Notes: a model not told the origin generated them from the sequence alone. 15,311 nucleotides of DNA from Escherichia coli (GCF_003334815.1 NZ_QOWO01000056.1); one strand, 5' to 3'. Positions 3 through 15,031 are shown, counted from the stretch's first letter. Numbers and translations: made by a program.

Positions 3-1174
<1,172 letters not shown>

Positions 1175-1376
1175 CGAAAGTATCTTAGCGGGCATGAAAA
1201 TGGCAAATAACGGTCAAACATCGTGGCGTTGACATTCTGGCTGGAAGTATCGAGTACACGCTCGTAAGCGGCCCTCACGGCCCGCTAACGCGGAGATACG
1301 CCCCGACTTCGGGTAAACCCTCGTCGGGACCACTCCGACCGCGCACAGAAGCTCTCTCATGGCTGAAAGCGGGTAT

Positions 1377-1590
1377 GGTCTGGCAGGGCTGGGGATGGGT
1401 AAGGTGAAATCTATCAATCCGTACCGGCTTACGCCGGGCTTCGGCGGTTTTACTCCGGTATCACATGTAACCACAGCGTGCCGCCTTACATGCCGCTGAA
1501 GCGGCATTCAGTAGACAGGCTATGCACGACTCGCCAGTCTGGCCTGAACATGATATAAAATGAATATAAATAGACAGAATAGGGTTATTT
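1377..1590 (+). repeat. Copy 1 of a diverged ~200-bp direct repeat (structured leader-like element) upstream of the 294-aa gene
   Basis: Matches 9636-9834 by hand alignment: the first 61 nt have 5 mismatches, starting GGTCTGGCAGGG..GGGTAAGGTGAAA..GTACCGGCTTACGCCGG; a second block (TATCACATG..GTGCCGCCTTACATGCCGCTGAAGCGGCAT) is about 84% identical. Weaker similarity continues to the start codon. Copy 1 carries about 21 extra bp (GCTTCGGCGGTTTTACTCCGG). Confidence 0.7.
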
Positions 1591-2475
1591 ATGGATTTAT
1601 ATCACTTTACAGCAATTCCTATGTTGCATTCCATACTTGCATCTGAAGGCCTGAGAGAAGGATATCTAACGTTGTATGATGGAACAATTTTGTATAATAA
1701 AGTATGGTTAACGACATCTCCATTACCATATGGTCACGGATTATGTAACGGTACTGAAAAATTAAGTGAATCAGAAAAATCATTTATGCGAAGAGTCGGT
1801 AATATATCTGAGTCTACGTCTATAAATGGAACACATAATAAAAAGTTAATAAGGTTAAAAATAGATACTGAATGGATAAAAAAGCAGCCTGGATTTTGCT
1901 CATATAAAAAGCTGATGCGTGACCTTGGACAACCTAAAGCTTATGTTAAGTACGTAGGTGCAATGGGGGTTGAGGGGGCAAGGGGGATGACCGATGAGCA
2001 GATAAGTAAAATTATGCGAAAAGGTAACACAAAAGAAGATACCTGGTATATCTTTAATGGGGTCATCCCACCTTCAAAAATAGTCTCTGTTGAATATATG
2101 GAAACTAAAGATAAATATATACCATATGATTTTGAATTGCATGGAAGGGGATATATAGAAAACTCCGGCATTTATCCGATTTCGAATTTATTATTATCTG
2201 ATCTGAATCATACAATGCGAAATATTACATTTTTACCAGGTTCTGTCATAGCGTTTTGTCATAAAGCAAATTCAGAAGAAAATATTTTATTCAGACATGT
2301 ATTATTCACATGTTCAATCTCCTTGAGAAATTTTTCAGTACTGATAGCAACAGGTGATGAGACATCTTTCTATATTCATCTGGATGTATTAAAAAGTTGG
2401 ACTCAAAAAAACAGTAAAGTACTATGCCAACTTTTTGAAAAAGCACGTGAAAGTTACCACAGATACTATGGTTAG
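1591..2475 (+). CDS. Hypothetical protein, 294 aa, AT-rich, function unknown
   Basis: Long ORF in strongly AT-rich DNA with Lys/Asn/Ile-rich codon usage, unlike the flanking IS and backbone. No motif recognised with certainty. The N-terminal LYHFT..SIL..GL pattern is faintly reminiscent of ART-fold (DarT/DUF4433-like) N-termini, but downstream motifs do not obviously match. Confidence 0.6.
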   Translation: MDLYHFTAIPMLHSILASEGLREGYLTLYDGTILYNKVWLTTSPLPYGHGLCNGTEKLSESEKSFMRRVGNISESTSINGTHNKKLIRLKIDTEWIKKQPGFCSYKKLMRDLGQPKAYVKYVGAMGVEGARGMTDEQISKIMRKGNTKEDTWYIFNGVIPPSKIVSVEYMETKDKYIPYDFELHGRGYIENSGIYPISNLLLSDLNHTMRNITFLPGSVIAFCHKANSEENILFRHVLFTCSISLRNFSVLIATGDETSFYIHLDVLKSWTQKNSKVLCQLFEKARESYHRYYG

Positions 2476-2824
2476 AAACCACTGCGGGGAGAACATCAGT
2501 GGCACAAAACTAGACCGCCCGGAACCGGGACGCTTACTGATGGACAGTCATCGCAATGATATCTTGCTGGTTGAGCAGATAGGGGCTCCGTGGGAATTTC
2601 TGCGATAACACCCGCTAAGCGATTTCTCCCTGACGGAAATCACTTGTTTTTCGTTCAGAGGCAGGCAAGAGGAATATTCATCCCCAAAAACGGCGTTTTC
2701 ATATGCGGAAAACGCTGCCGGATAGTCGAATAGTACGACAAACTGACTTCTGACGTTTTCCGTACATTTCAGATTCAGTAACCCCGAATATTTGGGGTTG
2801 GTATGGCTAACGCCTTGAATTTCA

Positions 2825-2977
2825 ATGAACAATATTTTGTTACCGTGTACTGTCGCAGAAATGCCCACGGAACCCCTACTTGGACAGCATGTACTTTATG
2901 AAGTGAATGATGAGGCCAGTCGTGTCAATATCCTGGCGGTTGTAGGCCAGCGTCAGAATCCCCGATTCATTCTTTGA
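2825..2977 (+). pseudogene. Possible remnant of a RelE/ParE-family toxin (C-terminal half only)
   Basis: A 50-codon ORF ends ..GQHVLYEVNDEASRVNILAVVGQRQNPRFIL*, resembling the RelE/ParE C-terminal core (compare RelE ..GYRLVYQVIDEKVVVFVISVGKRER..). No matching N-terminal half was found in any frame upstream. Confidence 0.3.
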
Positions 2978-3012
2978 GTGTCCGGCTTGGAACTCCATCT
3001 TCAGAGAATCGA

Positions 3013-3678
3013 TCAACGTTCTTTAGCTCCTTCCACTAACAGCCGACCTATCTCAAACACCGCAGCTGACCGTCCCGACTTCACCGCTTCGGCTTTCTGT
3101 CCCTCAACAAACCAGTTATTACCGTCCGTTCGGACCAACTCAAACATCCATGACATATCGTAAACGTGTTCCGGGATCAGCGACCCTTCTCCGGCCAGAA
3201 TACCCGCCGTTATGGAGTGGTTGCCCCCGTGCACAAAGCCAATACGCCAGGGCAACCACAGGTCAACATAGTGGTTGTTTTTATCTTGCTTCCACGGCTT
3301 CCCCTTATGGGTTCCAATGCGTGAAACGTTATCGATATAGCGTGGTAGGCTCCAAGGCCACGGCAGCACTATGTCGCTTGCCAGCGACAACGGATAATCA
3401 GCGCCGTTCATCTCACACTCTTTCATCTTTTCGTAAGATTGTATTTGGGTAAGTCCCTTAAAGAAGAACTCCTGCGGGGTCATATCCGGGCGGGCATCTG
3501 TTCCCTCCTCAGCTACCGCCAGCAAGAAATCACTCTGTACTGGCCGCACGATAGCGCGAATGAGATCTGGTAGCGCCTTAACGGGTAGTTTCTCTGCCAC
3601 AGAAAGCAGATGATTGAAGCGTTTTTTTTCATTGGCTATAGTTGCTTTATCTTTCTTGTTTCGGTTCCAGAACATCAC
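3013..3678 (-). CDS. Hypothetical protein, 221 aa, function unknown
   Basis: ORF with a strong upstream Shine-Dalgarno (TAAGGAGGG about 9 nt before the GTG/ATG start); Trp-rich segment PWPWSLP..DLWLPWRIGFVHGGNHS; no family recognised. Convergent with the 294-aa gene. Confidence 0.6.
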   Translation of the reverse strand: MMFWNRNKKDKATIANEKKRFNHLLSVAEKLPVKALPDLIRAIVRPVQSDFLLAVAEEGTDARPDMTPQEFFFKGLTQIQSYEKMKECEMNGADYPLSLASDIVLPWPWSLPRYIDNVSRIGTHKGKPWKQDKNNHYVDLWLPWRIGFVHGGNHSITAGILAGEGSLIPEHVYDMSWMFELVRTDGNNWFVEGQKAEAVKSGRSAAVFEIGRLLVEGAKER

Positions 3679-4247
3679 TGTCTGTAGCCCTCCTTATCGT
3701 GATCAGGATGATGGTTTTCATTCTAATGGTGTAGTAGTTTCACGTCACGCGCACGTGCATATTCTTCGAAAGCTTCGGCGTTAGCCGGTCAACCAGGGGT
3801 TTGAGGCCCAACCGTACGAGATCGTACGCTAAGTTCATTTTTTGAGCAGAAGAGGTGAGTAAAGAAAACGAGGGTTTTGTTTACTCTTCCCGTCAATGCC
3901 AGTAGCCATGCGGTTTCAGGGACTTTCAGTGTTAATAAACTCGGTAATCAAATCAACGTAAACCTGCCTAACAACGCCACGACTTTATTGACTTAAAATC
4001 ATATAGTTAGCTTCTTAGCGTACGTTTCCGCTCCATTGGGCTTCAAACCCCACACCCAATGACATGAGAAAAGCTGGATCTGATTCTCAAAATGCTGGGA
4101 TACCCATCGAGATGGAGAACTCAGTCAATGTTCCATTCTTTCTGAAATATGTGTGGGGACACTGATCTGTCGGGAGCCGGATGCGGTAGTTCCGCAGGTC
4201 CGGTTCTGAGGAGGGGCCCGTCCGGGCAACCGGCGGGTCTACTCACC

Positions 4248-4811
4248 TCATCCCCCTACAACCACTCCCATTCGTTTAAGTATTTTTAAACCTGCTTCCT
4301 GTGGTATCTTTATAGATAAGATCCTGTTTATCTCAGGATTTATATCGAGACCTTCTGTCATTGAAAAATCACAGTGAGACAAATCAGAATGTCTGAACTC
4401 TGTATTATTAAACTCCGAACCAGTAAAATCAGATTTACGAAGGTCTGTTTCCTCAAATAAACAATCACGGAAGCGACAGGATAAAAAAATAGATTTCTGT
4501 AACCGTAAACTAATAAAATCAACAAATCTCAAATCACAATTTACAAGAGAAAAAGTACAGGGAAACATAATGTCTGCTGCATTTACTCCTTGTAATAAAC
4601 AATCTTTGAATTCACAGTCAATAAGTTTAAAAAAATTAAGTTTTAAATTCTTTATTGAGCAGTTTACGAAGCGACATTTTTCGAACTCACAATCGCGAAA
4701 GTTAAAGTTGTCAAGCTGTATTCGTTCAAATATACAATTGTAATAATTTACACCTGATAATTCACTTTCACTGAGGTGTCGTTTTGTGATTCTTTTTTCT
4801 ATTATATCCAT
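4248..4811 (-). CDS. mcbG: Microcin B17 immunity protein McbG (pentapeptide-repeat, Qnr-like gyrase protection), 187 aa
   Basis: Last gene of the mcb operon by position; length matches McbG; pentapeptide-repeat character visible (CIFERIQLDNFNFRDCEFEKCRFVNCSIKNLKLNFFKLIDCEFKDC..). Confidence 0.92.
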   Translation of the reverse strand: MDIIEKRITKRHLSESELSGVNYYNCIFERIQLDNFNFRDCEFEKCRFVNCSIKNLKLNFFKLIDCEFKDCLLQGVNAADIMFPCTFSLVNCDLRFVDFISLRLQKSIFLSCRFRDCLFEETDLRKSDFTGSEFNNTEFRHSDLSHCDFSMTEGLDINPEINRILSIKIPQEAGLKILKRMGVVVGG

Positions 4812-4814
4812 GTG

Positions 4815-5546
4815 TCAGTCTCCTGTTCCCATAACTTCTTTAATAAATGCCTTTTCTGGAGTTGTTTCATTATTGGATTGAATAAAATCACTCATATCAG
4901 AATAACGATTTATACTATTTTTTGAAAGCATATAGAAGGGGATTTTATCTCTTGTTAATTCATCAAAAATATGAGTTGAGAAAAATACCGTTTTCCCGTC
5001 AGCGGTGATCTTATTTATCAGTTCCCATAACATCATTCTGTACTGAATATCAATGCCTACAGTTGGTTCATCCAGTAAAAATAAACGGGCATTTTTGCAA
5101 AGCGTTAGCATCAAAGATATGATAAGCCAACGCTTCTCTCCATAACTTACCGTGTAAGTCCTTTTACGTCTTATTTTATCATAGCGAATGAAAAAATTAT
5201 CATTCCATTTATGATTAAGCTCTGTCCATGCCTGTTTTTTAGTTAACTTATTGAAGCAGCAAATCAAATCAAGAACCTCCTCATTCCTTAGTGTACCTGA
5301 AAGATTTATGACTTGAGGTAGACTTACTAATTCTCCACCAGAGAAATTTCGCTTGAGGGTCCCTTCATAATTACTGACTCCGCCCCTGATAAGGTTAAAA
5401 AGAGTGGTCTTCCCGGCTCCATTTTCTCCAAGCAGACCTATCAACTCTCCCTGCTCAATCTTAAGCGACAGATTATTGAAAACAGGGGGTAAATTTACTT
5501 TATATGAAAAGCTCAGAGAGTTGATTTCTAAAAGAGGTATGGTCAT
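4815..5546 (-). CDS. mcbF: Microcin B17 export/immunity ABC transporter ATP-binding protein McbF
   Basis: Walker A GENGAGKTT, ABC signature-like FSGGE, Walker B LFLLDEPT; 4-nt overlap with mcbE (ATGA) suggests translational coupling. Confidence 0.92.
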   Translation of the reverse strand: MTIPLLEINSLSFSYKVNLPPVFNNLSLKIEQGELIGLLGENGAGKTTLFNLIRGGVSNYEGTLKRNFSGGELVSLPQVINLSGTLRNEEVLDLICCFNKLTKKQAWTELNHKWNDNFFIRYDKIRRKRTYTVSYGEKRWLIISLMLTLCKNARLFLLDEPTVGIDIQYRMMLWELINKITADGKTVFFSTHIFDELTRDKIPFYMLSKNSINRYSDMSDFIQSNNETTPEKAFIKEVMGTGD

Positions 5547-6268
5547 TGAGAACTCCAGACTGGCTCAGTTTTGAAGGTTAGTGCTGAAATAATACTTATG
5601 ATTAACATTATACTATAGAAAAATATCGTCATCAGAGACAACTCCTGGTCTGACTGGAGTATTGTAGAATAGATGGCGATAGGATTAACCTGATTTATCC
5701 AGTAAACGATCCCCTCATTATATTTTAATGATACAATTCCTGATACCATACAGACAGTTATTAATACAGAATAGATAGTGCTGGCTGTTTGGAATGTGAC
5801 TCTGAACGATGCCATGAAAGTGAGTGAAACCATCATAAATGCATTTATGTATATCGATTTTAAAATAATCATTACTATTTGATAATCTGGACTTGCCTGG
5901 AATCCTGTTAGTACGACTAAAATGAAAAAAAACACATACAAAATAGACATGATAAGTGAGGCTATTAATTGAGAACGAATAAATAATAGTCGACCATCCA
6001 TATTATGCACGAAGGTAGCAATAAAACCACTTTCTCTTCTTCCGACCAGATACAGACAGTAATTAAACAGAACAACAGAAAAAGAAATGTAGCCTACAAA
6101 CCATGATATTTGTTTTCCGAGCCATGCTGTATCACCATAATGAAGTTCAATTTCATTGAAATGAAGGAAAAAGAACAACACTGTAGGTGACATAATTGTC
6201 CATATTAAGCTGAAAGGGGTTCTGATTTGTTCCATCAGAAAAATTATCGCCATTTTTAATGTAACCAT
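5543..6268 (-). CDS. mcbE: Microcin B17 export ABC transporter permease McbE, 241 aa
   Basis: Highly hydrophobic multi-pass membrane protein of the correct length, positioned between mcbD and mcbF. Confidence 0.9.
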   Translation of the reverse strand: MVTLKMAIIFLMEQIRTPFSLIWTIMSPTVLFFFLHFNEIELHYGDTAWLGKQISWFVGYISFSVVLFNYCLYLVGRRESGFIATFVHNMDGRLLFIRSQLIASLIMSILYVFFFILVVLTGFQASPDYQIVMIILKSIYINAFMMVSLTFMASFRVTFQTASTIYSVLITVCMVSGIVSLKYNEGIVYWINQVNPIAIYSTILQSDQELSLMTIFFYSIMLIISIISALTFKTEPVWSSQ

Positions 6269-6277
6269 TTGTTATCC

Positions 6278-7468
6278 TTATGGGAATGGTACCATCTTTG
6301 ATTCTCTGACTTTAATACCGTCCCCGGTATGGTAAATTTTATTATTAATGTTTATTGCACCTGAGTTATTCATATGAAGGAAAAAATCAGGGCTTACTAT
6401 TTTTGTGTACCAGACAAGGCTGTTACTTACTCTTTCCCTGGCATAGTAAACAAAAATATTATCAGAAATTTGTTGAAGATAGTTTAATAAATTTGTGTCT
6501 GACGTAATATTTTCCTCAAGCGTTAACTTGACATCATCAGACAGTAGTACCGTATTTTCACACAAATCCGTAAACGACTCGTACTTGTTGCATGACATAA
6601 AGTGACGCTGGTAACTATCAATAATGTCATCATCAGTATAACCGCCAATAAGAAAGTTGTGCAGGCATATATACGATTGCCACAATTCCACTACGGATTT
6701 ACAAAGTGCTTTTTTCAGACTATTAGCATAGGATAATCCGGTACTGTATTTTATTCGACTGATTTTGTTTTTTGTGCCATACAGGGTTAGTACTGCGTGT
6801 CCAGGAGCTCCGGGCAGGGTGATATCGAAAATCCTGATATCTCCTTCTGACCTGAGAGCCAGTAAAATCTCATCTATATGATTTATGCCTGTTACTATTT
6901 CACTGGATATTTCAGTATTGGCTTTTCCCTGTAACCAGTAAAGAAGGAGGGACTGTCTCTCCATAAATTCACACAAGGAACCTTCTATGGCATCGTTCAA
7001 ACTACCATGAAAGCTACATCCGCATGTATCTCTGTCAGGATAAAATTTCAGATCATCTGCAGCGGTTATATTGTCGAGTGCAATTATGACTGCAGGTATT
7101 TCTTGTTGTTCAAGGCTAAACAGATTAAAGGCTCTGACCGTTTTAAATTTATGGGTTATGATTTCATCGCGGGTCAGTGATGAGATCTGAAAAAATGCTT
7201 CGGTAAAAGCCTTTGCAGCAGATGGAGGCATCATCTCATATAATGTTTTCTGACCACCGGTGACTATCTCATTAAAAAAATGACGGCGTTCAAAATATTC
7301 ACCTATTGCCCCCTGAATTGACTTCAGAGTTTCACCGGCCGCGCTGGCTGGTGTAATACGCTCATAGTCCCATATCTGAGAAAACGTTGGCATATTTCTG
7401 TTCAGTTTTGGACTCATGGCCATTGTGGCCGGCCATGCGGACATAAGGTTACTGTAGACATTTATCAT
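6278..7468 (-). CDS. mcbD: Microcin B17 synthetase YcaO-type cyclodehydratase McbD, 396 aa
   Basis: Position and length match McbD of the mcbABCDEFG operon; start overlaps the mcbC 3' end by 20 nt. Confidence 0.92.
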   Translation of the reverse strand: MINVYSNLMSAWPATMAMSPKLNRNMPTFSQIWDYERITPASAAGETLKSIQGAIGEYFERRHFFNEIVTGGQKTLYEMMPPSAAKAFTEAFFQISSLTRDEIITHKFKTVRAFNLFSLEQQEIPAVIIALDNITAADDLKFYPDRDTCGCSFHGSLNDAIEGSLCEFMERQSLLLYWLQGKANTEISSEIVTGINHIDEILLALRSEGDIRIFDITLPGAPGHAVLTLYGTKNKISRIKYSTGLSYANSLKKALCKSVVELWQSYICLHNFLIGGYTDDDIIDSYQRHFMSCNKYESFTDLCENTVLLSDDVKLTLEENITSDTNLLNYLQQISDNIFVYYARERVSNSLVWYTKIVSPDFFLHMNNSGAININNKIYHTGDGIKVRESKMVPFP

Positions 7469-8267
7469 CGTTTACATCTCCAAAAAACTGAACGATCAGT
7501 GGCGCTACGGTCCTCTGATCCAGATTCATTGTTTTTGCTACGTATGAATCGGTATATCCCGCCCATACCCGGTTTTTCAGTCCTATTTGATCTGCAACCA
7601 ATACTGCGTTCTGATACATCGAACCTGTTTCCATTAAGGCCATCCGGTATCCTCTGTAGCGATATTTGAACAAAGCTTTTTCAAAAATAATGCAATAGAC
7701 GAGAGCAAAATGGGGTTTACCAAGACGTTCCGAATCCCCACCGGACAGGCTTCGGTAGAGTGACTGAGTATTACATGTAGCAACAGGTTCCAGTGCCTGA
7801 CTTAGCGGCAGGTAGTGATAAACATTAGTTCCTGCCTGCCAGTTTTCTGTATTTTCAGATAATCTGCATAAAAAAACTTCAATCGGGTACAATGCCCCCC
7901 CAGAAGGATAAGGTCTTCTTACAGAGCCAGGATCAGGTGAGCTGAATGCATTGACTAATAACTTTTCAATAGTACGAATGGAAAGTTTATTTTTGTCGCA
8001 AAAGTTTATTCCTGATGGGAGCCTTTCACGACTAAAATTATGTGATGAGGATATGTTTATTACGGAGCTGAAACCTGGCCTGAAGAGAACTTCTTTATTT
8101 TCAAATTTCTCCAGATGGGCAAGAGGTACCGCGGACACGAAAGTTCGTTCAGCAAATTCGGGGAGGGAAGCAAAGTTACCTCTGACATGAAAATCTTTAA
8201 CAATGGCCAGAACTTCAGGATCTGTGTAATGCGTTACTTCCACTAAAGAGAGTTCGTGTTTTGACAT
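7449..8267 (-). CDS. mcbC: Microcin B17 synthetase FMN-dependent dehydrogenase McbC, 272 aa
   Basis: Position and length match McbC; immediately follows mcbB with a 1-bp gap. Confidence 0.92.
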   Translation of the reverse strand: MSKHELSLVEVTHYTDPEVLAIVKDFHVRGNFASLPEFAERTFVSAVPLAHLEKFENKEVLFRPGFSSVINISSSHNFSRERLPSGINFCDKNKLSIRTIEKLLVNAFSSPDPGSVRRPYPSGGALYPIEVFLCRLSENTENWQAGTNVYHYLPLSQALEPVATCNTQSLYRSLSGGDSERLGKPHFALVYCIIFEKALFKYRYRGYRMALMETGSMYQNAVLVADQIGLKNRVWAGYTDSYVAKTMNLDQRTVAPLIVQFFGDVNDDKCLQ

Positions 8268-8268
8268 G

Positions 8269-9156
8269 TTATCTCTCCAGACAGCTGCAAGCCTGCCAGT
8301 GAATTACCGGCTCTTTACATAAAATACTGGTGATTAAATCAGCGCTAACAGATGACATAAAGTTATCGACATGACTTTTAACCAGTGAAGTACCTGTCAA
8401 CTCCTGAAGTCGCCGTTTTATTAAATGATAGCTGAATCCTCTTTCTGATTCGCCTAAAGCCAATGCTGGTAGTGTCATTTGGTATTTTTTCAGTAACTGA
8501 AGTAAGTTTGCCCAGGACATTTCGTTACGTCTGAAGCTTTTTTCTTCCCTGCTCAGCCATCTCTCTATATGACAAAAATGGCAGGGAGTACCAAGATCAG
8601 GTGAATATACTCCATCTATCCTGAATGACTCCTTTAGGTAGTAGCTTTGGATGAAGGCAACACCAGGGTTACTTTCAAATTTTGAATAGATTCTTTTTAC
8701 AATGTCTGAATGATAGTTTTCGAGATGTAACCAGATTAGTGTTGAATCGCTCACATTAATATTATTATCTTTTATATCAATGATATGAGAAACAAAAACA
8801 CCATCAGATTTCCATTGTTCCCGGGCATTACTGAAAAGATGTGGAACATCGCTTATTATGACTGAGTTTACCCAGAGAGGTGATGTTTTCGTTTTATTTA
8901 TCACGCCTGTGGTAATAAGAAACTCTTTGCCCTTGTCTTTATCAATAAGCGATTCGTCCAGTAGTTTATCAAGGAGGTATTCAGAAATAATACCCTGTTT
9001 GGATCGTAGGCTTTCGAGTACTTTTTTCATTCCCTCATGTGTAATGTCTACTGAAGAAATGTAGGTAATAAGCAGGGTCTTTGTATTTCTGGAAATTATC
9101 TCAAATGGCAGAATATTGATCATATCTTTTCCTTTTTTAATATCAGGGAGCACCAT
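8269..9156 (-). CDS. mcbB: Microcin B17 synthetase zinc-binding scaffold/cyclodehydratase subunit McbB, 295 aa
   Basis: Position and length match McbB; Cys/His clusters (..PCHFCHIERW.. and C-terminal ..HWQACSC..) are consistent with a zinc tetrad. Confidence 0.92.
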   Translation of the reverse strand: MVLPDIKKGKDMINILPFEIISRNTKTLLITYISSVDITHEGMKKVLESLRSKQGIISEYLLDKLLDESLIDKDKGKEFLITTGVINKTKTSPLWVNSVIISDVPHLFSNAREQWKSDGVFVSHIIDIKDNNINVSDSTLIWLHLENYHSDIVKRIYSKFESNPGVAFIQSYYLKESFRIDGVYSPDLGTPCHFCHIERWLSREEKSFRRNEMSWANLLQLLKKYQMTLPALALGESERGFSYHLIKRRLQELTGTSLVKSHVDNFMSSVSADLITSILCKEPVIHWQACSCLER

Positions 9157-9164
9157 GCTCCCTG
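9144..9164 (-). promoter_or_regulatory. Hairpin in the mcbA-mcbB intergenic region sequestering the mcbB Shine-Dalgarno, with the AUG in the loop
   Basis: Minus-strand RNA reads 5'-CAGGGAGC-AUGGU-GCUCCCUG-3': a perfect 8-bp stem whose 5' arm contains the AGGGAG ribosome-binding site, with the mcbB start codon in the 5-nt loop. Confidence 0.5.
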
Positions 9165-9182
9165 AACGGTTAATTCAACGTA

Positions 9183-9380
9183 TCAGATATGTGAACCACT
9201 TCCGCCGCTGCCACCGTTTCCACCACTACAACCGTTGCTGCAACCACCACAACCGCCACCTTGACCACCGCAGCTACCGCCGCCACCACCACCAATGCCA
9301 ACACCTAATGGAGACTGGCGTGATAATTTAAGAGCATCAACGGACAAAACTACACCAAATTCACTCGCTTTTAATTCCAT
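9183..9380 (-). CDS. mcbA: Microcin B17 precursor peptide McbA (65 aa in this copy)
   Basis: Translation MELKASEFGVVLSVDALKLSRQSPLG|VGIGGGGGGSCGGQGGGCGGCSNGCSGGNGGSGGSGSHI is the McbA leader plus Gly/Ser/Cys-rich core. Shine-Dalgarno AGGAG lies 5-6 nt upstream. Confidence 0.95.
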   Translation of the reverse strand: MELKASEFGVVLSVDALKLSRQSPLGVGIGGGGGGSCGGQGGGCGGCSNGCSGGNGGSGGSGSHI

Positions 9381-9600: not shown

Positions 9601-9635
9601 GTCAGGATGTCACACTACCCCTTTAAGCCCCCACT

Positions 9636-9834
9636 GGTCTGGCAGGGCCGGGGGTGGGTAAGGTGAAACCTGTCAATCAGTACCGGCTTACGCCGGTATC
9701 ATATGCAACAACTGAGTGCCGCCTTCCATGCCGCTGGTGCGGCATATCCTGGTGACGATATCTGAATTGTTATAGATATGTATATACGTAGTAATGACAA
9801 GAATAGGATAAGTTAAAAATTTACAGGAGATGCA
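9636..9834 (+). repeat. Copy 2 of the diverged ~200-bp direct repeat, upstream of the small membrane protein gene
   Basis: See copy 1. Conserved hairpins CCGGCTTACGCCGG and ATGCCGC-NNNN-GCGGCAT (loop TGAA in copy 1, TGGT in copy 2, stem identical). Confidence 0.7.
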
Positions 9835-10131
9835 ATGATTCAGACACGTAATCAATATCTGCAGTTTATGCTGGTTATGCTGGCTGCATGGGGCATTAGC
9901 TGGGGAGCCAGATTTGTCATGGAGCTGGCCGTTCTGCTTTATGGGCCAGGAAAAAACTATTTGTTCTTCAGTCATGGTGCTGTTCTGATGTACCTGCTGT
10001 GTGTTTTCCTGGTATACCGCCGTTGGATAGCTCCACTACCGGTCGTTGGTCAGCTGCGCAACGTTGGCGTACTGTGGCTGGTCGGTGCGATGGCCGTGGT
10101 GTATATCGGTGTATTTCTGCTCGATCGATAG
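9835..10131 (+). CDS. Small hydrophobic membrane protein, 98 aa, about 3 predicted TM segments, function unknown
   Basis: Good Shine-Dalgarno (AGGAG 5 nt upstream); three hydrophobic stretches (FMLVMLAAWGISW, AVLMYLLCVFLVY, VLWLVGAMAVVYIGVFLL); GC-rich codon usage in contrast to the adjacent mcb genes. Confidence 0.6.
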   Translation: MIQTRNQYLQFMLVMLAAWGISWGARFVMELAVLLYGPGKNYLFFSHGAVLMYLLCVFLVYRRWIAPLPVVGQLRNVGVLWLVGAMAVVYIGVFLLDR

Positions 10132-10175
10132 GAATATTCCGGCAAGTGTCATCTGTATTTAAAGGTCGTGTGAGT

Positions 10176-10628
10176 ATGAAATTTATGGAATGTGCTGTCC
10201 GGGATGTGATTTATGGGACCAATGTCCGTATTGTCAAACCGGTCAACATTTATGAATGTGAACTCAGGGACAATGTGTTTGTCGGCCCCTTCGTTGAGAT
10301 ACAGAAAGGCTGTGTCATTGGTAGTGGAAGCCGGATACAGTCGCACACGTTTATTTGTGAGAACGTAACACTGGGGGAGAACTGCTTCATTGGTCATAAC
10401 GTGACGTTCGCCAACGATCTGTTTCGTTCAGGAGCACCAGATCCGTCACCGGATAACTGGATCAGCATTACCCTGGGGGATTCGGTTACTGTTGGCAGTG
10501 GAGCCATTATTCTGTCTCCGTATATATGCAGCGGAGCTGTTATTGGTGCGGGTTCAGTTGTGGTAAAACCGATTGAGAACAAAGGCATTTATGCAGGAAA
10601 CCCGGCAAGACTGCTCAGAATATTATGA
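10176..10628 (+). CDS. Hexapeptide-repeat (left-handed beta-helix) acyl/acetyltransferase, about 150 aa
   Basis: Repeated [LIV]-G-x-x-x-x hexapeptide pattern and the characteristic C-terminal ..IGAGSVVVKPIENKGIYAGNPARLLR. The track ORF 9999..10628 has an implausible N-terminal extension overlapping the membrane protein gene; the ATG at 10176 (MKFMECAV..) is the likely start. Confidence 0.75.
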   Translation: MKFMECAVRDVIYGTNVRIVKPVNIYECELRDNVFVGPFVEIQKGCVIGSGSRIQSHTFICENVTLGENCFIGHNVTFANDLFRSGAPDPSPDNWISITLGDSVTVGSGAIILSPYICSGAVIGAGSVVVKPIENKGIYAGNPARLLRIL

Positions 10629-11031: not shown

Positions 11032-11385
11032 TTAGTTTATTAACTTCATCGCATTCTTTTTTGTCTCCTCATCACTTTTTTGCTCCGATTGTGAAGAGGA
11101 CTGAATGATTGTTGAAGAATTTAAATCGGCCATCTCTTTTGGAAATAGCGATCTCAATATATTCACGATATCTGAAAATGTGGTTTCTTTCGTCAGCAAT
11201 TCACATAAAAGGAAAGGGGCCCTGGGATCTTGTCTGTATAAGGCCAGACCTGCCGTCAGTGCAGCCCGGTTAAGGCGGCTGCGTTCCCCTTGCGGGATAC
11301 TGTCCAGTGTATCACAAACAATTTTATCTGTTTGATTTACATCTGGATTTAGCTTAAAGGCAATGGTTCTGCGCTTGTCCATCAT
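11032..11385 (-). CDS. parR: Plasmid partition centromere-binding adaptor ParR (StbB), 117 aa
   Basis: Translation [50 protein letters not shown].. is recognised as R1/R100-type ParR; TAATG stop/start overlap with parM. Confidence 0.9.
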   Translation of the reverse strand: MMDKRRTIAFKLNPDVNQTDKIVCDTLDSIPQGERSRLNRAALTAGLALYRQDPRAPFLLCELLTKETTFSDIVNILRSLFPKEMADLNSSTIIQSSSQSEQKSDEETKKNAMKLIN

Positions 11386-12347
11386 TAATTACCTATGAGA
11401 TACATACCGTTAACTAAATCATATTGAGAGTTATTGGTTTTAAAAAAACGTTCATCACGAATCTGTGTGTTTTTTTTTACTGCATCGCATATTAATTCTG
11501 CGCCACCACCTATAACCATAACATGAGTATAACCAGAAAATTCATTGAGTGTATTTAATACACGTTGCTCAAGTTTACGAAGTGCTTCATTCATTGCTTC
11601 GGTGACTATTGATATTTTGTTCTCATCATTAATTCGTTGCTTCAGATAGTTATTATCTTTTCTGTGAATAATTATATCGTCAGCAAGATAGCTACTTCCT
11701 TTTGTTCTCGCAAGAGAAAGGGCATCTTTTACTGCAGATGTGACCAGAGATACACCAAGAGATGAGTCTCCGTATATTTTACTGATCCCCGATAATTTCC
11801 CCATTACCTGAGAAATATCTAATGTGGTGCCCCCGAGATCTATAATTAATAAAGAATCTAACTCATCCAGTTCTTGTAGAACTTCATAACCTGCCGGTAT
11901 AGATTCAGGCATGACTTTTACATCTTTTATTGTGAATGCATCCCCACCATTTAATGTAATTTTTTTCCGGAAGTTTGCTTTCTTACGCTCAATATTTTCC
12001 GTATTGGGTTGGTTATTCCTGTCGTAATACTCTGTCAGAGGAAGTGTGCAAACAATATCCACTTCACTTACCGGCAGGCCACTGGTCAGTAAGGCGTGGT
12101 GCACCGCAACGACATTAACGTCGCTGTATTGCCATGCGATATTGGTTGTGACTACAGCATCCGGGCTGATTGGATCAAATGAATACTGTTCGCCGTTCAG
12201 TGTGTAGTTAAAGACCTTTTTATCACCAAAAGAAACTGCCCACTCGCGTTTGAAGCTGTTCGGGCTAATGTGCTGTTTAATTGTTCCGTCGCTTTCCTGC
12301 CACTGTAGTTTGATGTTTGTTGAACCGTCATCAATGAATACCAACAT
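11385..12347 (-). CDS. parM: Plasmid segregation actin-like ATPase ParM (StbA), 320 aa
   Basis: Translation [36 protein letters not shown].. is recognised as R1-type ParM (actin fold, 320 aa); Shine-Dalgarno AGGAG upstream. Confidence 0.95.
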
Positions 12348-12524: not shown

Positions 12525-12860
12525 AAAGATGTCGCCGGGCTCCTCTTTTTACTGCGCCGGCTGACGCGGCGCGGCAGGAACGCTGCCTGTGGTCAGTGTC
12601 CCGCGTCCGGCCGGGCACGGGACGGGCGCTTTTACCGCTCCCGGCTGGCGTCGGTGACAGTGTACGCCAGCTCGTCGCCCTTTTCTGATGAGCGCCCTTC
12701 AAGCCGCTTTCGCGGCATAGCCTTGCCGTCAAAAAGACGACGGCTGCGGTATTCCACGGTCGGCCTGACCCGTTACCGGACGCGGTGAACAGCCCACAGG
12801 CAGCGGGGAACGGGCACCACAGGGGTGCCCTCCCGGTGCCCTCTGTAAGAGAAGGAGCGT
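12525..12860 (+). promoter_or_regulatory. GC-rich, hairpin-dense non-coding region upstream of the methyltransferase; candidate single-strand initiation / ssDNA promoter (Frpo-like) element
   Basis: Numerous inverted repeats (GACGCGG..CCGCGTC, GCTGGCGT-12nt-ACGCCAGC, CGGCA-TAGCCT-TGCCG, GGGCAC-CACAGG-GTGCCC). Its first ~40 bp (AAAAGATGTCGCCGGGCTCC..TTTAC..) recur at 15085. The functional assignment is inference. Confidence 0.35.
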
Positions 12861-12864
12861 TGTT

Positions 12865-13548
12865 ATGTCCCGTTTTGTCCTCGGTAACTGCATCGATGTT
12901 ATGGCCCGTATTCCTGATAACGCCATTGATTTCATACTGACTGACCCGCCGTACCTCGTCGGTTTTCGTGACCGTTCCGGGCGCACCATCGCTGGCGATA
13001 AAACCGATGAATGGCTGCAACCGGCCTGTAATGAAATGTACCGCGTACTCAAAAAAGATGCGCTGATGGTCAGCTTCTATGGCTGGAACCGCGTCGATCG
13101 CTTTGTGGCCGCCTGGAAAAATGCGGGATTCAGCGTGGTTGGTCACCTGGTCTTCACCAAAAACTACACATCGAAGGCCGCATATGTGGGCTATCGCCAC
13201 GAATGCGCTTACATCCTGGCAAAGGGCAGTCCGGCCCGGCCCCGTAACCCTCTGCCGGATGTGCTGGGCTGGAAATATTCGGGCAACCGCCATCACCCGA
13301 CGGAAAAGCCCGTTACCAGCCTGCAACCACTGATTGAGAGCTTCACACATCCGAACGCGATTGTGCTGGACCCGTTTGCAGGCAGCGGCTCAACCTGCGT
13401 CGCCGCCCTCCAGTCCGGACGTCGGTATATCGGTATCGAGCTGCTTGAGCAGTATCACCGTACCGGACAGCAACGTCTGGATGCCGTACAGCGGGCCATG
13501 CAGCAGGGGGCCGCAAATGATGACTGGTTTATGCCGGAGGCTGCGTAA
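12865..13548 (+). CDS. Orphan DNA methyltransferase, beta-class N6-adenine/N4-cytosine type, 227 aa
   Basis: Catalytic motif IV DPPY (..FILTDPPYLVGF..) precedes the SAM-binding motif I (..LDPFAGSGSTCVAA..), the beta-class order. No adjacent restriction endonuclease gene. Shine-Dalgarno AAGGAG upstream. Confidence 0.85.
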   Translation: MSRFVLGNCIDVMARIPDNAIDFILTDPPYLVGFRDRSGRTIAGDKTDEWLQPACNEMYRVLKKDALMVSFYGWNRVDRFVAAWKNAGFSVVGHLVFTKNYTSKAAYVGYRHECAYILAKGSPARPRNPLPDVLGWKYSGNRHHPTEKPVTSLQPLIESFTHPNAIVLDPFAGSGSTCVAALQSGRRYIGIELLEQYHRTGQQRLDAVQRAMQQGAANDDWFMPEAA

Positions 13549-13770
13549 ATGAACTATGCCGGACATGAAAAACTTCGCGCCGAAGTGGCGGAGGTGGCCA
13601 ATGCCATGTGCGACCTGCGTACAACCATGAATGAGATGGAGCGGCGGTACAGCTTTAATGCTGACACCCTGCCGGAACGTCTGGTGCGTCAGACGTTGTT
13701 TCGCGCAAACCGCCTCCTGATGGAGGCATATACCGAAATTCTGGAACTGGATTCCTGCTTCAAAGATTGA
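13549..13770 (+). CDS. Hypothetical small protein, 73 aa (plasmid leading-region type)
   Basis: ORF starts at the stop codon of the methyltransferase gene, suggesting coupling; no motif recognised. Confidence 0.5.
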   Translation: MNYAGHEKLRAEVAEVANAMCDLRTTMNEMERRYSFNADTLPERLVRQTLFRANRLLMEAYTEILELDSCFKD

Positions 13771-13781
13771 GGGGAGAGAGT

Positions 13782-14216
13782 ATGTACGGAACATGCGAAA
13801 TACTCTGCCGGGAGCTGGCAGCAAAGTATCCGGGAGACACGCCGCTGATGCTGGTTATCTGGTCTCCGGAAGAGATTCAGGCCCTTGCTGACGGAATGGA
13901 TATTTCCCTGTCCGATCATGAAATCAGGACCGTCCTGGCGCGCCTGGAGGACATCCCGGAAGACCAGCGGACTGAGTCCGGTATTTCTTCGGGTGCGGCT
14001 ATGGAGATTATCAGCAACGTGAGTGAAAACCGCCAGGTGACCGTCCCTGCTGAACTGCTGGCGTCCCTGATTCAGACCGCTGAACAGGCATTGTGGAAGC
14101 GTGAATGGGCCGCCCGTGATAACGGCCTCGTCGTCCCGGAATGCGTCACCCGCCGTCAGGCGGTGGTTAATCAGGCCCGCGCCCTGCTGAAAAACAACAC
14201 ACACGAAAACGACTGA
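13782..14216 (+). CDS. Hypothetical protein, about 144 aa (plasmid leading-region type)
   Basis: ORF with purine-rich Shine-Dalgarno (GAGGGGAGAGAG) before the ATG at 13782; the track's TTG start at 13767 is less likely. No confident family assignment. Confidence 0.6.
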
Positions 14217-14260
14217 TGTTATCGCCGCCTGCGGGCGGCGATTCAGGGAGACCATTAATC

Positions 14261-15031
14261 ATGAACAAAACGCTGAATGCACTGGTTTGTCGCCACGCCC
14301 GTAACCTGCTGCTGGCGCAGGGCTGGCCGGAAGAGACGGATATTGAACAACTGAATCCGCACTATCCGGGCTGGATCAGCATTTATGTGCGACTGGATGT
14401 ATCCCGGCTGGCGACGTTACTTATCAGCCGCCATGATGGCGTGCTGCCGCCGGTCCTGGCGTCTGCCATGCAAAAACTGACCGGAACCGTGGCGGAACTT
14501 GTACTGTCCGGCAGCCAGTGGCAGGCGCTGCCGGTACTTCCGGCAGACGGAACGCAGGTGTCTTTCCCGTATGCCGGTGAATGGCTGACGGAGGAAGAAA
14601 TCAGGGCAGTTCTTGATGCGGTGCGCGATGCAGTACGAAGCATCTGTTACCAGGTGGCAGACGATGCGCGGCGTATCCGGGCGGCGCTGACCACCACCGG
14701 TCAGACGTTGCTGACCCGGCAGACGCGCCGCTTTCGTCTGGTTGTGAAGGAAAGCGATTACCCCTGCTGGCTTGATGAGGACGACGAAAACCTGCCCGTG
14801 GTGCTCGATGCCATCCTGAACCGGGGCGCACGTTTTTCGGCGGTGGAAATGTACCTGGTCAGTGAGTGTGTGGAGCATATCCTGGCCAGTGGTCTGGTCT
14901 GTGATGTGCTGCGTATACCGGATGAACCGTCCCGTCGCTGGTTTGACAGGGATATTCTGCGGGAGGTTGTTCTGGAGGCACGGGATGAAATCCGCAGCAT
15001 GGCGGATGCACTGGCGAAAATCCGGAAATGA
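14261..15031 (+). CDS. Hypothetical protein, about 256 aa (plasmid leading-region type)
   Basis: Long GC-rich ORF; the ATG at 14261 (MNKTLNALV..) is preceded by Shine-Dalgarno AGGGAG. The track's upstream start at 14216 would overlap the previous gene and lacks an RBS. Confidence 0.6.

Follow-up and report, generated by a model that had tools for sequence, protein, structure and literature searches.

A 15,311-nucleotide (nt) stretch of Escherichia coli DNA (GCF_003334815.1, NZ_QOWO01000056.1; the whole of it is called the window here), which was a piece of an IncF-type plasmid, contained at positions 1591–2475 a gene whose 294-amino-acid (aa) product is very probably a nicotinamide adenine dinucleotide (NAD+)-binding protein of the ADP-ribosyltransferase (ART) fold. 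The gene was real; its product displayed the architecture ART–DUF4160-like with conserved NAD-site residues, and its family was nearly confined to conjugative plasmids [IncF resistance plasmids, Agrobacterium tumor-inducing (Ti) plasmids, and others] and had no conserved partner gene. The 294-aa protein belonged to neither DarT nor Tpt1 as judged by profile searches (see below), and the most fitting assignment was therefore to a new ART family, unnamed and of new architecture. That it is an NAD+-dependent modifying ART acting for the plasmid in host–plasmid conflict was the best explanation overall and is offered tentatively.

Gene, fold, and NAD-site residues

The open reading frame (ORF) was complete, and a Shine-Dalgarno-like AGGG was located 6 nt 5′ of its start codon. 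A run of 294 stop-free codons would arise by chance with p ~1.5e-11 at the ORF's own base composition (66% A+T), and full-length homologs were found at 24–46% identity; the gene was thus accepted as real. The AlphaFold Database (AFDB) entry A0A0S4G9E5 ("Orf2") was 100% identical to its product. PADLOC, NCBIfam, and Pfam gave no match for the 294-aa protein, PHROGs and the PDB chain sequences gave chance-level matches only (E 0.2–1.3), and none of the 143 profile-found relatives had any precomputed Pfam domain in the N-terminal part, so that the first-pass annotation, made from the sequence of the window alone, was right at the sequence level in placing the gene in no family. It had also given this gene the lowest GC content in the window, which did not hold: the gene had 33.7%, the same as mcbE (33.7%), and mcbG was lower (31.9%). 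As a whole, what that annotation had observed of the gene and its surroundings was borne out in part.

An AlphaFold2 model of the 294-aa protein, made from 11 homologs, had a mean predicted local distance difference test (pLDDT) score of 85.5 and a predicted template modeling (pTM) score of 0.80, and it displayed two domains, the N-terminal one with the split β-sheet of the ART fold. This domain was composed of strand 1 (LYHFT, with H5 and T7), helix 1 (SIL..GL), strand 2 (VWLTT, with W39 and T41), and, after a loop, the further motifs NK..IR (K84 and R88) and TWY (W152), together with family-specific helical inserts at about aa 93–150; the PLPYGHGL stretch at aa 44–51 was modeled with low confidence and is probably a flexible loop. 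The best PDB matches of the model were nearly all from the ART superfamily (Tpt1, DarT1, ArtA, LT, pertussis S1, and Scabin); further down came pertussis-like ArtA (7.8) and the DUF952 protein CC0527 (7.7), then the Rhs toxin TreX and heat-labile enterotoxin, and after these M. tuberculosis and Thermus DarT, pertussis S1, and Scabin, and the pseudo-PARP domains of TASOR, RCD1, and PARP13 were also among the structural matches. Foldseek against AFDB50 returned the identical protein first, then full-length family members, and then remote relatives named "DarT domain-containing" or "DUF4433 domain-containing" in UniProt (E 2e-18 to 4e-7). The profile of 22 short relatives (ART domain alone) was aligned below significance (E 0.2–0.9) with three Tpt1 structures and DarT1, exactly at the strand 1–helix 1 motif (ilYHfT...l.sIl.eGl), and profile–profile alignment (hhalign) with E. 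coli KptA covered 22–28 columns only, at the same motif. The ART resemblance was thus real, yet visible only at this motif and at the fold level; the loose likeness of the N terminus to the H-x-T..SIL..GL signature of ARTs, remarked on in the first-pass annotation, was confirmed by the PDB matches of the model, the AFDB relatives, and the profile alignment.

Conservation was counted over 31 full-length homologs, down to 24% identity. H5, T7, W39, T41, G50, W152, and G193 were invariant in all 31, and I15, G24, G48, H49, G54, K84, R88, Y179, F181, E182, G185, R186, W270, and L278 were nearly so, with K84, R88, E182, and R186 kept in at least 29 of the 31 (E182 and R186 in 29 each). H5-x-T7 matched the NAD+-contacting positions of the H-x-[ST] ARTs in the motif alignment (H-G-T of Tpt1 and H-F-T of DarT1), and W39-L-T41 on strand 2 was equated with "VHLS" of KptA by inspection; H5, T7, W39, and T41 thus supplied the NAD+-binding residues of an ART, namely a strand 1 His and an aromatic residue plus Ser/Thr on strand 2/3. 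E182 and R186 were located in the junction helix, outside the minimal core, and were absent from the short relatives. Judged by sequence, the residue pattern appeared to resemble that of DarT less than that of ARTs which attack phosphates, such as Tpt1.

The C-terminal domain (aa 193–294), modeled alone, reached a pLDDT of 97.3 and was composed of a short strand plus helix, four β-strands, and two long helices. Pfam DUF4160 (PF13711) matched 4 of 30 family members at E ≤ 1e-3 and 9 of 30 at E ≤ 0.1, and it did not match the C-terminal domain of the 294-aa protein itself even at E ≤ 10; Foldseek matches to DUF4160 were weak (E ~0.03), one relative (P0051) had a weak match to NCBIfam toxin_DhiT, and the Ti-plasmid homologs were named "DUF4160 domain-containing protein" in RefSeq. 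A diverged DUF4160 was the best explanation of this domain. The DUF4160 consensus presumably includes a His-rich "PPHFH", in place of which the family had "P.V.FR". DhiT is the toxin of the DhiTA pair, and DUF4160 is a candidate effector domain of Menshen NsnC (PMC8198452, PMC12065111).

The comparison was also applied to four known systems. (i) The NAD+-binding C-lobe of Tpt1/KptA was a closest fold to the N-terminal domain of the family, but the N-terminal RNA-binding lobe of Tpt1/KptA (catalytic Arg-His-Arg) was absent from the 294-aa protein, since its ART strand 1 began at residue 3, while the equivalent motif of E. coli KptA began at residue 102 of 184. The NCBIfam RNA 2′-phosphotransferase profile did not match the 294-aa protein, and its best match to a relative scored 12.1 bits versus a cut-off of 239; moreover, the family differed from Tpt1/KptA in its large specific inserts (aa 42–86 and aa 93–150), its extra DUF4160-like domain, and its plasmid-borne, solitary gene in place of a housekeeping one. 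(ii) The DarT (PF14487/DUF4433) profiles of Pfam, PADLOC, and NCBIfam matched neither the 294-aa protein nor its 22 short, 31 long, and 10 further relatives, the precomputed Pfam DarT domain was found in 0 of 143 relatives, and no DarG (macrodomain) or NADAR gene was located nearby in the window or in nine other contexts; the family differed from DarT also in the C-terminal domain and in having no identifiable invariant catalytic glutamate. (iii) With DhiT/DUF4160, several family members were linked by a Pfam DUF4160 match of their last 100 residues, but the domain was fused behind an ART domain in the family instead of standing alone; a DUF2442 (DhiA) antitoxin gene was listed in none of the contexts, and a recombinase remnant only was present directly downstream in the window. 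(iv) Among the protein-modifying domains that occur in the polyvalent proteins of conjugative elements, ART domains are the most frequent, and Alt, ModA, and ModB of phage T4 are phage examples of mobile-element ARTs (PMC5512222). The family shared with these polyvalent-protein ARTs (Tox-ART-HYD2) and T4 enzymes the ART fold on a mobile element, for which host modification aiding establishment has been proposed or shown (PMC5512222), but they were of the H-Y-D or R-S-E clade and usually resided in giant multidomain proteins or were packaged in virions, while the family consisted of small stand-alone proteins belonging to the Tpt1/DarT-like branch, and nothing indicated that these are transferred together with DNA. 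In wider scans, Pfam gave no ART or DarT family for the 22 short and 31 long relatives and gave DUF4160 for the C-terminal domain only; when 10 diverse relatives were scanned with PADLOC and NCBIfam at E ≤ 10, the sole matches, to RNA 2′-phosphotransferase and toxin_DhiT, fell below threshold.

Distribution and genetic contexts of the family

A HMMER scan of 1.84 billion representative sequences found 105 clusters, of which ~45 were full-length (~290 aa) and many others were short proteins (150–200 aa) made of the ART domain alone. A tblastn search of PLSDB found a homolog in 400 plasmids, 352 of them conjugative, from alpha-, beta-, and gammaproteobacteria: Escherichia (228), Klebsiella (70), Agrobacterium (43), Salmonella (16), Enterobacter (8), Pseudomonas (8), Pantoea (7), Rhizobium (7), and Ralstonia (4). 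Among 5,426 complete E. coli genomes, 196 had the gene, at 212 places, 208 on plasmids and four on chromosomes. The 294-aa protein and one short relative had no tblastn match in 50,697 phage records, and a phage origin was rejected on this ground; IMG/VR had one contig with a homolog, the neighbors of which were uninformative. The genes of the short relatives were accompanied by integrases, HTH_17 excisionase-like genes, ProQ, or ParA in integrative elements.

Nine independent contexts were compared, and no neighbor, partner, or antitoxin was conserved across lineages; the adjacent small partner gene that characterizes type II toxin–antitoxin (TA) loci was not found, the neighbors being different in every lineage examined. 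These contexts included: (i) two Ti-plasmid types and the related pTiC6.5, with the order traA, oriT, traCDG, WGR, HU...homolog, HEPN, a thermonuclease gene between traCDG and WGR in two of the three, the homolog at ~6 kb from oriT, and ArdC a few kb further in two of the three; (ii) Pseudomonas syringae plasmids, with the order KorA/TrfB, homolog, a 125-aa gene, DUF932...nikA-relaxase; (iii) a Serratia plasmid, with the order ParA, a 97-aa gene, DUF7706, homolog, and with ArdA and a methylase ~6 kb off; (iv) a small metagenomic plasmid contig (locus L016, 751–5385), with a 30%-identical homolog between a MobC/NikA-like gene, directly upstream of it, and Dsr2; (v) a contig with an AcrVA2-like gene upstream of the homolog and H-NS downstream; and (vi) another contig with the homolog between type IV secretion system and pilus operons. 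In the Ti plasmids, a small WGR-domain protein was encoded upstream of the homolog, a divergent NUDIX gene adjoined it in pTi1D1487, and the HEPN gene (467–468 aa) followed on the same strand after 60–75 nt (locus L022, 5393–10321; locus L031, 4599–8328). The two Ti variants displayed 71% and 83% identity in the homolog–HEPN pair and were thus too close for this adjacency to count as independent evidence. This NAD/ADP-ribose-flavored neighborhood (HEPN, WGR, and NUDIX) was seen in closely related plasmids only.

Proposed role and its alternatives

ADP-ribosylation of DNA, RNA, and proteins is a central theme of bacterial immunity and counter-immunity, as in DarTG, CmdTAC, and T4 Alt/ModB. We infer an enzymatic activity, a substrate type, and a direction of the conflict role as follows. 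The 294-aa protein would be a cytoplasmic two-domain protein, with an N-terminal domain of the Tpt1/KptA–DarT–PARP ("H-x-T") ART branch, and H5, T7, W39, and T41 would hold NAD+, from which ADP-ribose would be transferred to a macromolecular target. This target would most likely be nucleic acid or a phosphate end, because the closest folds were those of Tpt1 and DarT and because K84, R88, K148, and R186 were conserved. The DUF4160-like domain would be a targeting or regulatory module, and a host or defense component would be modified on plasmid entry or during plasmid residence, in host–plasmid conflict.

A role in plasmid conflict in general is fairly probable; establishment or anti-defense in particular is put forward with caution. 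A plasmid-side role was favored because of the absence of an antitoxin or hydrolase partner, the restriction to mobile elements, the often oriT-proximal neighbors, and the precedent of polyvalent-protein and T4 ARTs, and it most likely applies rather than that of a classical TA toxin or a DarTG-like defense toxin. The contexts of the family fitted establishment/anti-defense at least as well as defense. The first-pass annotation had proposed a novel toxin or defense gene acting with its 221-aa neighbor; this was not established, since no PADLOC model matched the protein or 10 relatives and no conserved partner or antitoxin was present in the nine contexts. Its structural hunch was right, and its functional framing was unsupported as stated. 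Leading-region anti-defense genes share one orientation (PMC11541004), and the 294-aa gene in the window had this orientation, since it and the leading-region genes were encoded on one strand; the shared strand was weak evidence, because its prior chance was one in two.

Several observations weighed against this plasmid-side modifying role. No invariant catalytic acid was found in the minimal ART core, by sequence, in the 31 homologs and the short relatives: E168, the likeliest strand 5 candidate, was D/E in 25 of 31 and S/A/Q in 6 of 31, and some short relatives had C, H, L, or Q at this position. In E. coli, about half of the plasmids with the gene had retained its first 372 nt only (114 codons), for which reason the gene was considered dispensable; this stump, a common truncated allele, was a separate "hypothetical protein" in pAPEC-1 (locus L033, 4001–4345; ~0.9 kb downstream of IncFII repA) and in ~95 other E. 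coli plasmids. The gene adjoined oriR in the window and in other IncF plasmids, outside the leading region proper, and the terms retrieved from the enrichment tables for leading regions in PMC11541004 did not include the family. Three lineages had defense-associated genes as neighbors: Ppl and a DUF4238 protein near the gene in pGUE-NDM-type IncF plasmids; full-length Dsr2 (SIR2; PADLOC E 5e-144) directly downstream of the 30%-identical homolog and on the same strand; and HEPN plus zeta toxin near the homolog in two Ti plasmids. These neighbors pointed equally to a defense role. No study of the family was found in the literature, whether by accession or by theme (ARTs of the DarT or Tpt1 type encoded on conjugative plasmids).

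These three neighborhoods, together with the toxin ancestry of DUF4160, made a serious rival of a single-gene defense or exclusion toxin, that is, an abortive-infection-type ART effector against phages or competing elements, although this is itself unlikely. DarT ADP-ribosylates phage DNA, and the fold of the 294-aa protein was DarT-like; its C-terminal domain belonged to a family including the toxin DhiT and candidate Menshen effectors, and the ART domain might be held inactive by, or triggered via, the fused DUF4160-like domain, which would make a separate antitoxin unneeded. However, the short relatives without the C-terminal domain were also without a partner, no DarG/macro/NADAR-type or DUF2442 partner was present in any context examined, and no PADLOC v2 defense model matched the protein (0 families at E ≤ 1) or the 10 relatives, even at E ≤ 10. 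The chromosomal defense islands of E. coli were essentially devoid of the family.

Two further alternatives were each considered improbable. One is a Tpt1/KptA-like enzyme for NAD+-dependent removal or capping of 2′-, 3′-, or 5′-phosphates on RNA/DNA ends, which might repair RNAs cut by metal-independent RNases (HEPN and RelE-type toxins), as proposed for phage KptA homologs; against it stood the start of the protein at ART strand 1, leaving out the RNA-binding half of Tpt1, the confinement of KptA sequence similarity to 28 columns, the score of 12 bits versus the cut-off of 239 in a single relative, and the absence of RNA ligase or 2H partner genes nearby. The other is a noncatalytic ART-fold pseudoenzyme, i.e., an NAD+/ADP-ribose- or nucleic-acid-binding regulator or decoy, which might act, for example, by sequestering an immune signal or by binding to plasmid DNA close to oriR. 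The lack of an invariant acidic residue in the minimal core, the conserved place immediately downstream of IncFII repA/oriR in IncF plasmids, and the pseudo-PARP structural matches (TASOR, RCD1, and PARP13) spoke for it, but H5, T7, W39, T41, and G50 were strictly invariant at 24–46% identity, as is typical of a working NAD site, and the gene was located away from the replication origin in other plasmid groups. Least of all, an Arr-type small-molecule ADP-ribosyltransferase inactivating an antibiotic or a microcin, to which the many antimicrobial resistance plasmids carrying the gene (e.g., pGUE-NDM) and the adjoining microcin B17 operon of the window might point, was judged highly improbable.

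As for the plasmid-side modifying ART, the boldest form of the proposal, in which the 294-aa protein founds a plasmid-specific ART family not described before (ART plus DUF4160-like), which ADP-ribosylates host nucleic acid or a defense component for plasmid establishment or persistence, is somewhat unlikely to hold in full; if true, it would be a plasmid counterpart of the phage T4 Alt/Mod enzymes and a new anti-defense mechanism, spread from IncF to Ti plasmids. An active ART would mean a new enzyme family and architecture (ART–DhiT-like, antitoxin-free) for plasmid–host conflict and a tractable single-gene entry to plasmid establishment in defended recipients. The family was without a profile in Pfam, NCBIfam, PADLOC, and PHROGs, yet hundreds of sequenced conjugative plasmids had it, among them the Ti plasmids of Agrobacterium and, in E. 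coli and Klebsiella, IncF plasmids carrying NDM; should it be inactive or plainly accessory, its definition would still be useful in replacing "hypothetical" in plasmid annotations. Being widespread in clinical and agricultural plasmids and of a hot enzyme class, the gene was regarded as moderately interesting.

Structure of the window and the inserted segment

The features of the window are collected in Table 1.

Table 1. Features of the window, the 294-aa gene, and its product
Feature	Position	Strand	Remarks
IS21-family istB	374–1174		Upstream of the 294-aa gene
Replacement segment, 1369 bp	1508–2876	+	blastn versus locus L002: homology only at 1235–1507 and 2877–7250
Module common to pGUE-NDM-type IncF plasmids, 1027 bp	1556–2582	+	99.8% identity (blastn versus locus L003); flanks differ
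294-aa gene, complete ORF (294 aa plus stop)	1591–2475	+	ATG start; "hypothetical protein", "ycf", or "Orf2" in records; 329–400 plasmids with the gene
N-terminal ART-fold domain, ~aa 1–180	1591–2130	+
Junction helix, aa 181–192	2131–2166	+	Near-invariant motif Y179-D-F-E182-x-H-G-R186; short relatives end before the helix
C-terminal DUF4160-like domain, aa 193–294	2167–2472	+	W270 and L278 near-invariant
Serine recombinase/resolvase gene remnant (GTKLDRPE...DILLVEQI)	2489–2581	+	Directly 3′ of the stop codon of the 294-aa gene
RelE/ParE toxin gene, 3′ remnant	2877–2977	+	Last 101 nt, 33 codons plus stop
221-aa gene, DUF6710 family	3013–3678		Convergent; Pfam E 1.3e-48
Microcin B17 operon mcbA–G, complete	4248–9380	-	Downstream of the 294-aa gene
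parMR	11032–12347
DNA methylase, leading-region gene	12865–13548
Leading-region methylase block	12865–15031		Same strand as the 294-aa gene

The window was collinear with the usual mcb plasmids (e.g., NZ_CP098204) on both sides of the replacement segment; where the window had this segment, these plasmids had an antitoxin gene and the 5′ two-thirds of a RelE/ParE gene. Within the segment, the module shared with pGUE-NDM-type plasmids was composed of 35 bp upstream, the 294-aa gene, and 107 bp downstream. The recombinase remnant, recognized by a PHROG DNA-invertase match to aa 19–49 of the ORF at 2435–2608 and by the RefSeq name "recombinase family protein/resolvase", accompanied the 294-aa gene in other IncF plasmids and ended the shared stretch; it is likely a scar of the movement of the module.

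The first-pass annotation had placed the gene beside an insertion sequence element and a microcin operon and convergent with a second unknown gene, from which a RelE/ParE-like fragment separated it, a setting taken for a toxin or defense islet. The IS21-family istB, the mcb operon, and the fragment were all real, the last being the end of the RelE/ParE gene that the usual mcb plasmids carry; the second gene was indeed convergent but was not unknown, belonging to DUF6710. The islet itself did not stand, since the module had been inserted into an unrelated TA locus: the DUF6710 gene and the RelE/ParE remnant were incidental backbone of mcb plasmids. DUF6710 was present in this backbone with or without the 294-aa gene, most mcb plasmids having DUF6710 without the 294-aa gene and most plasmids with the 294-aa gene being without DUF6710; DUF6710 and RelE/ParE were rejected as partners because co-occurrence was not conserved and RelE/ParE was a mere remnant. 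A link of the 294-aa gene to microcin B17 was rejected on distribution. Six mcb plasmids only in PLSDB had the 294-aa gene, all from UK sheep-faeces isolates, and the whole stretch was matched in two only.

The IS21-family element ended at ~1234, and homology to plasmid relatives without it began at 1235, which placed IS21 between repA/oriR and the conserved oriR-downstream region. The "repeat copy 1" behind which the gene had been said to lie was found as described, 1376–1437 matching 9635–9696 at 92% and the similarity reaching over ~1376–1510 versus 9635–9750. This direct repeat (62-nt core, ~135 nt overall with a 21-nt indel) flanked the entire accessory block composed of the 294-aa gene, DUF6710, and the mcb operon; each copy was located just 5′ of a + strand ORF (1591 and 9835), and the similarity picked up again immediately 5′ of both start codons (AGAATAGG.TA). 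The stretch 1235–1507 around copy 1 was collinear with IncF plasmids lacking the 294-aa gene (locus L002), and the match of the at least 5000 plasmid records that matched part of query 1200–4250 probably falls on it. As single-stranded DNA, the repeat folded modestly better than shuffled sequences (z -2.1 and -2.5), and it may serve, downstream of oriR, as a promoter or a priming/ssi-type element. A 46-codon ORF at 1359–1499 inside copy 1, a "hypothetical protein" in CP057527 (record 1561–1701), may be an artefact of this conserved element.

Behind copy 2 (9835–10628), a 98-aa hydrophobic ORF and a 209-aa ORF resembling a hexapeptide-repeat acetyltransferase were located. The Rfam scan of the window gave no match. 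The region 12560–12830, just 5′ of the methylase gene (12865), contained a long imperfect inverted repeat (arms 12581–12610 and 12776–12805), the single-stranded DNA hairpin of which was very stable at -84.6 kcal/mol (z -6.3, matched by 0 of 200 shuffles); as folded in silico, it resembles the single-strand promoters of the Frpo/ssi type known from IncF leading regions.

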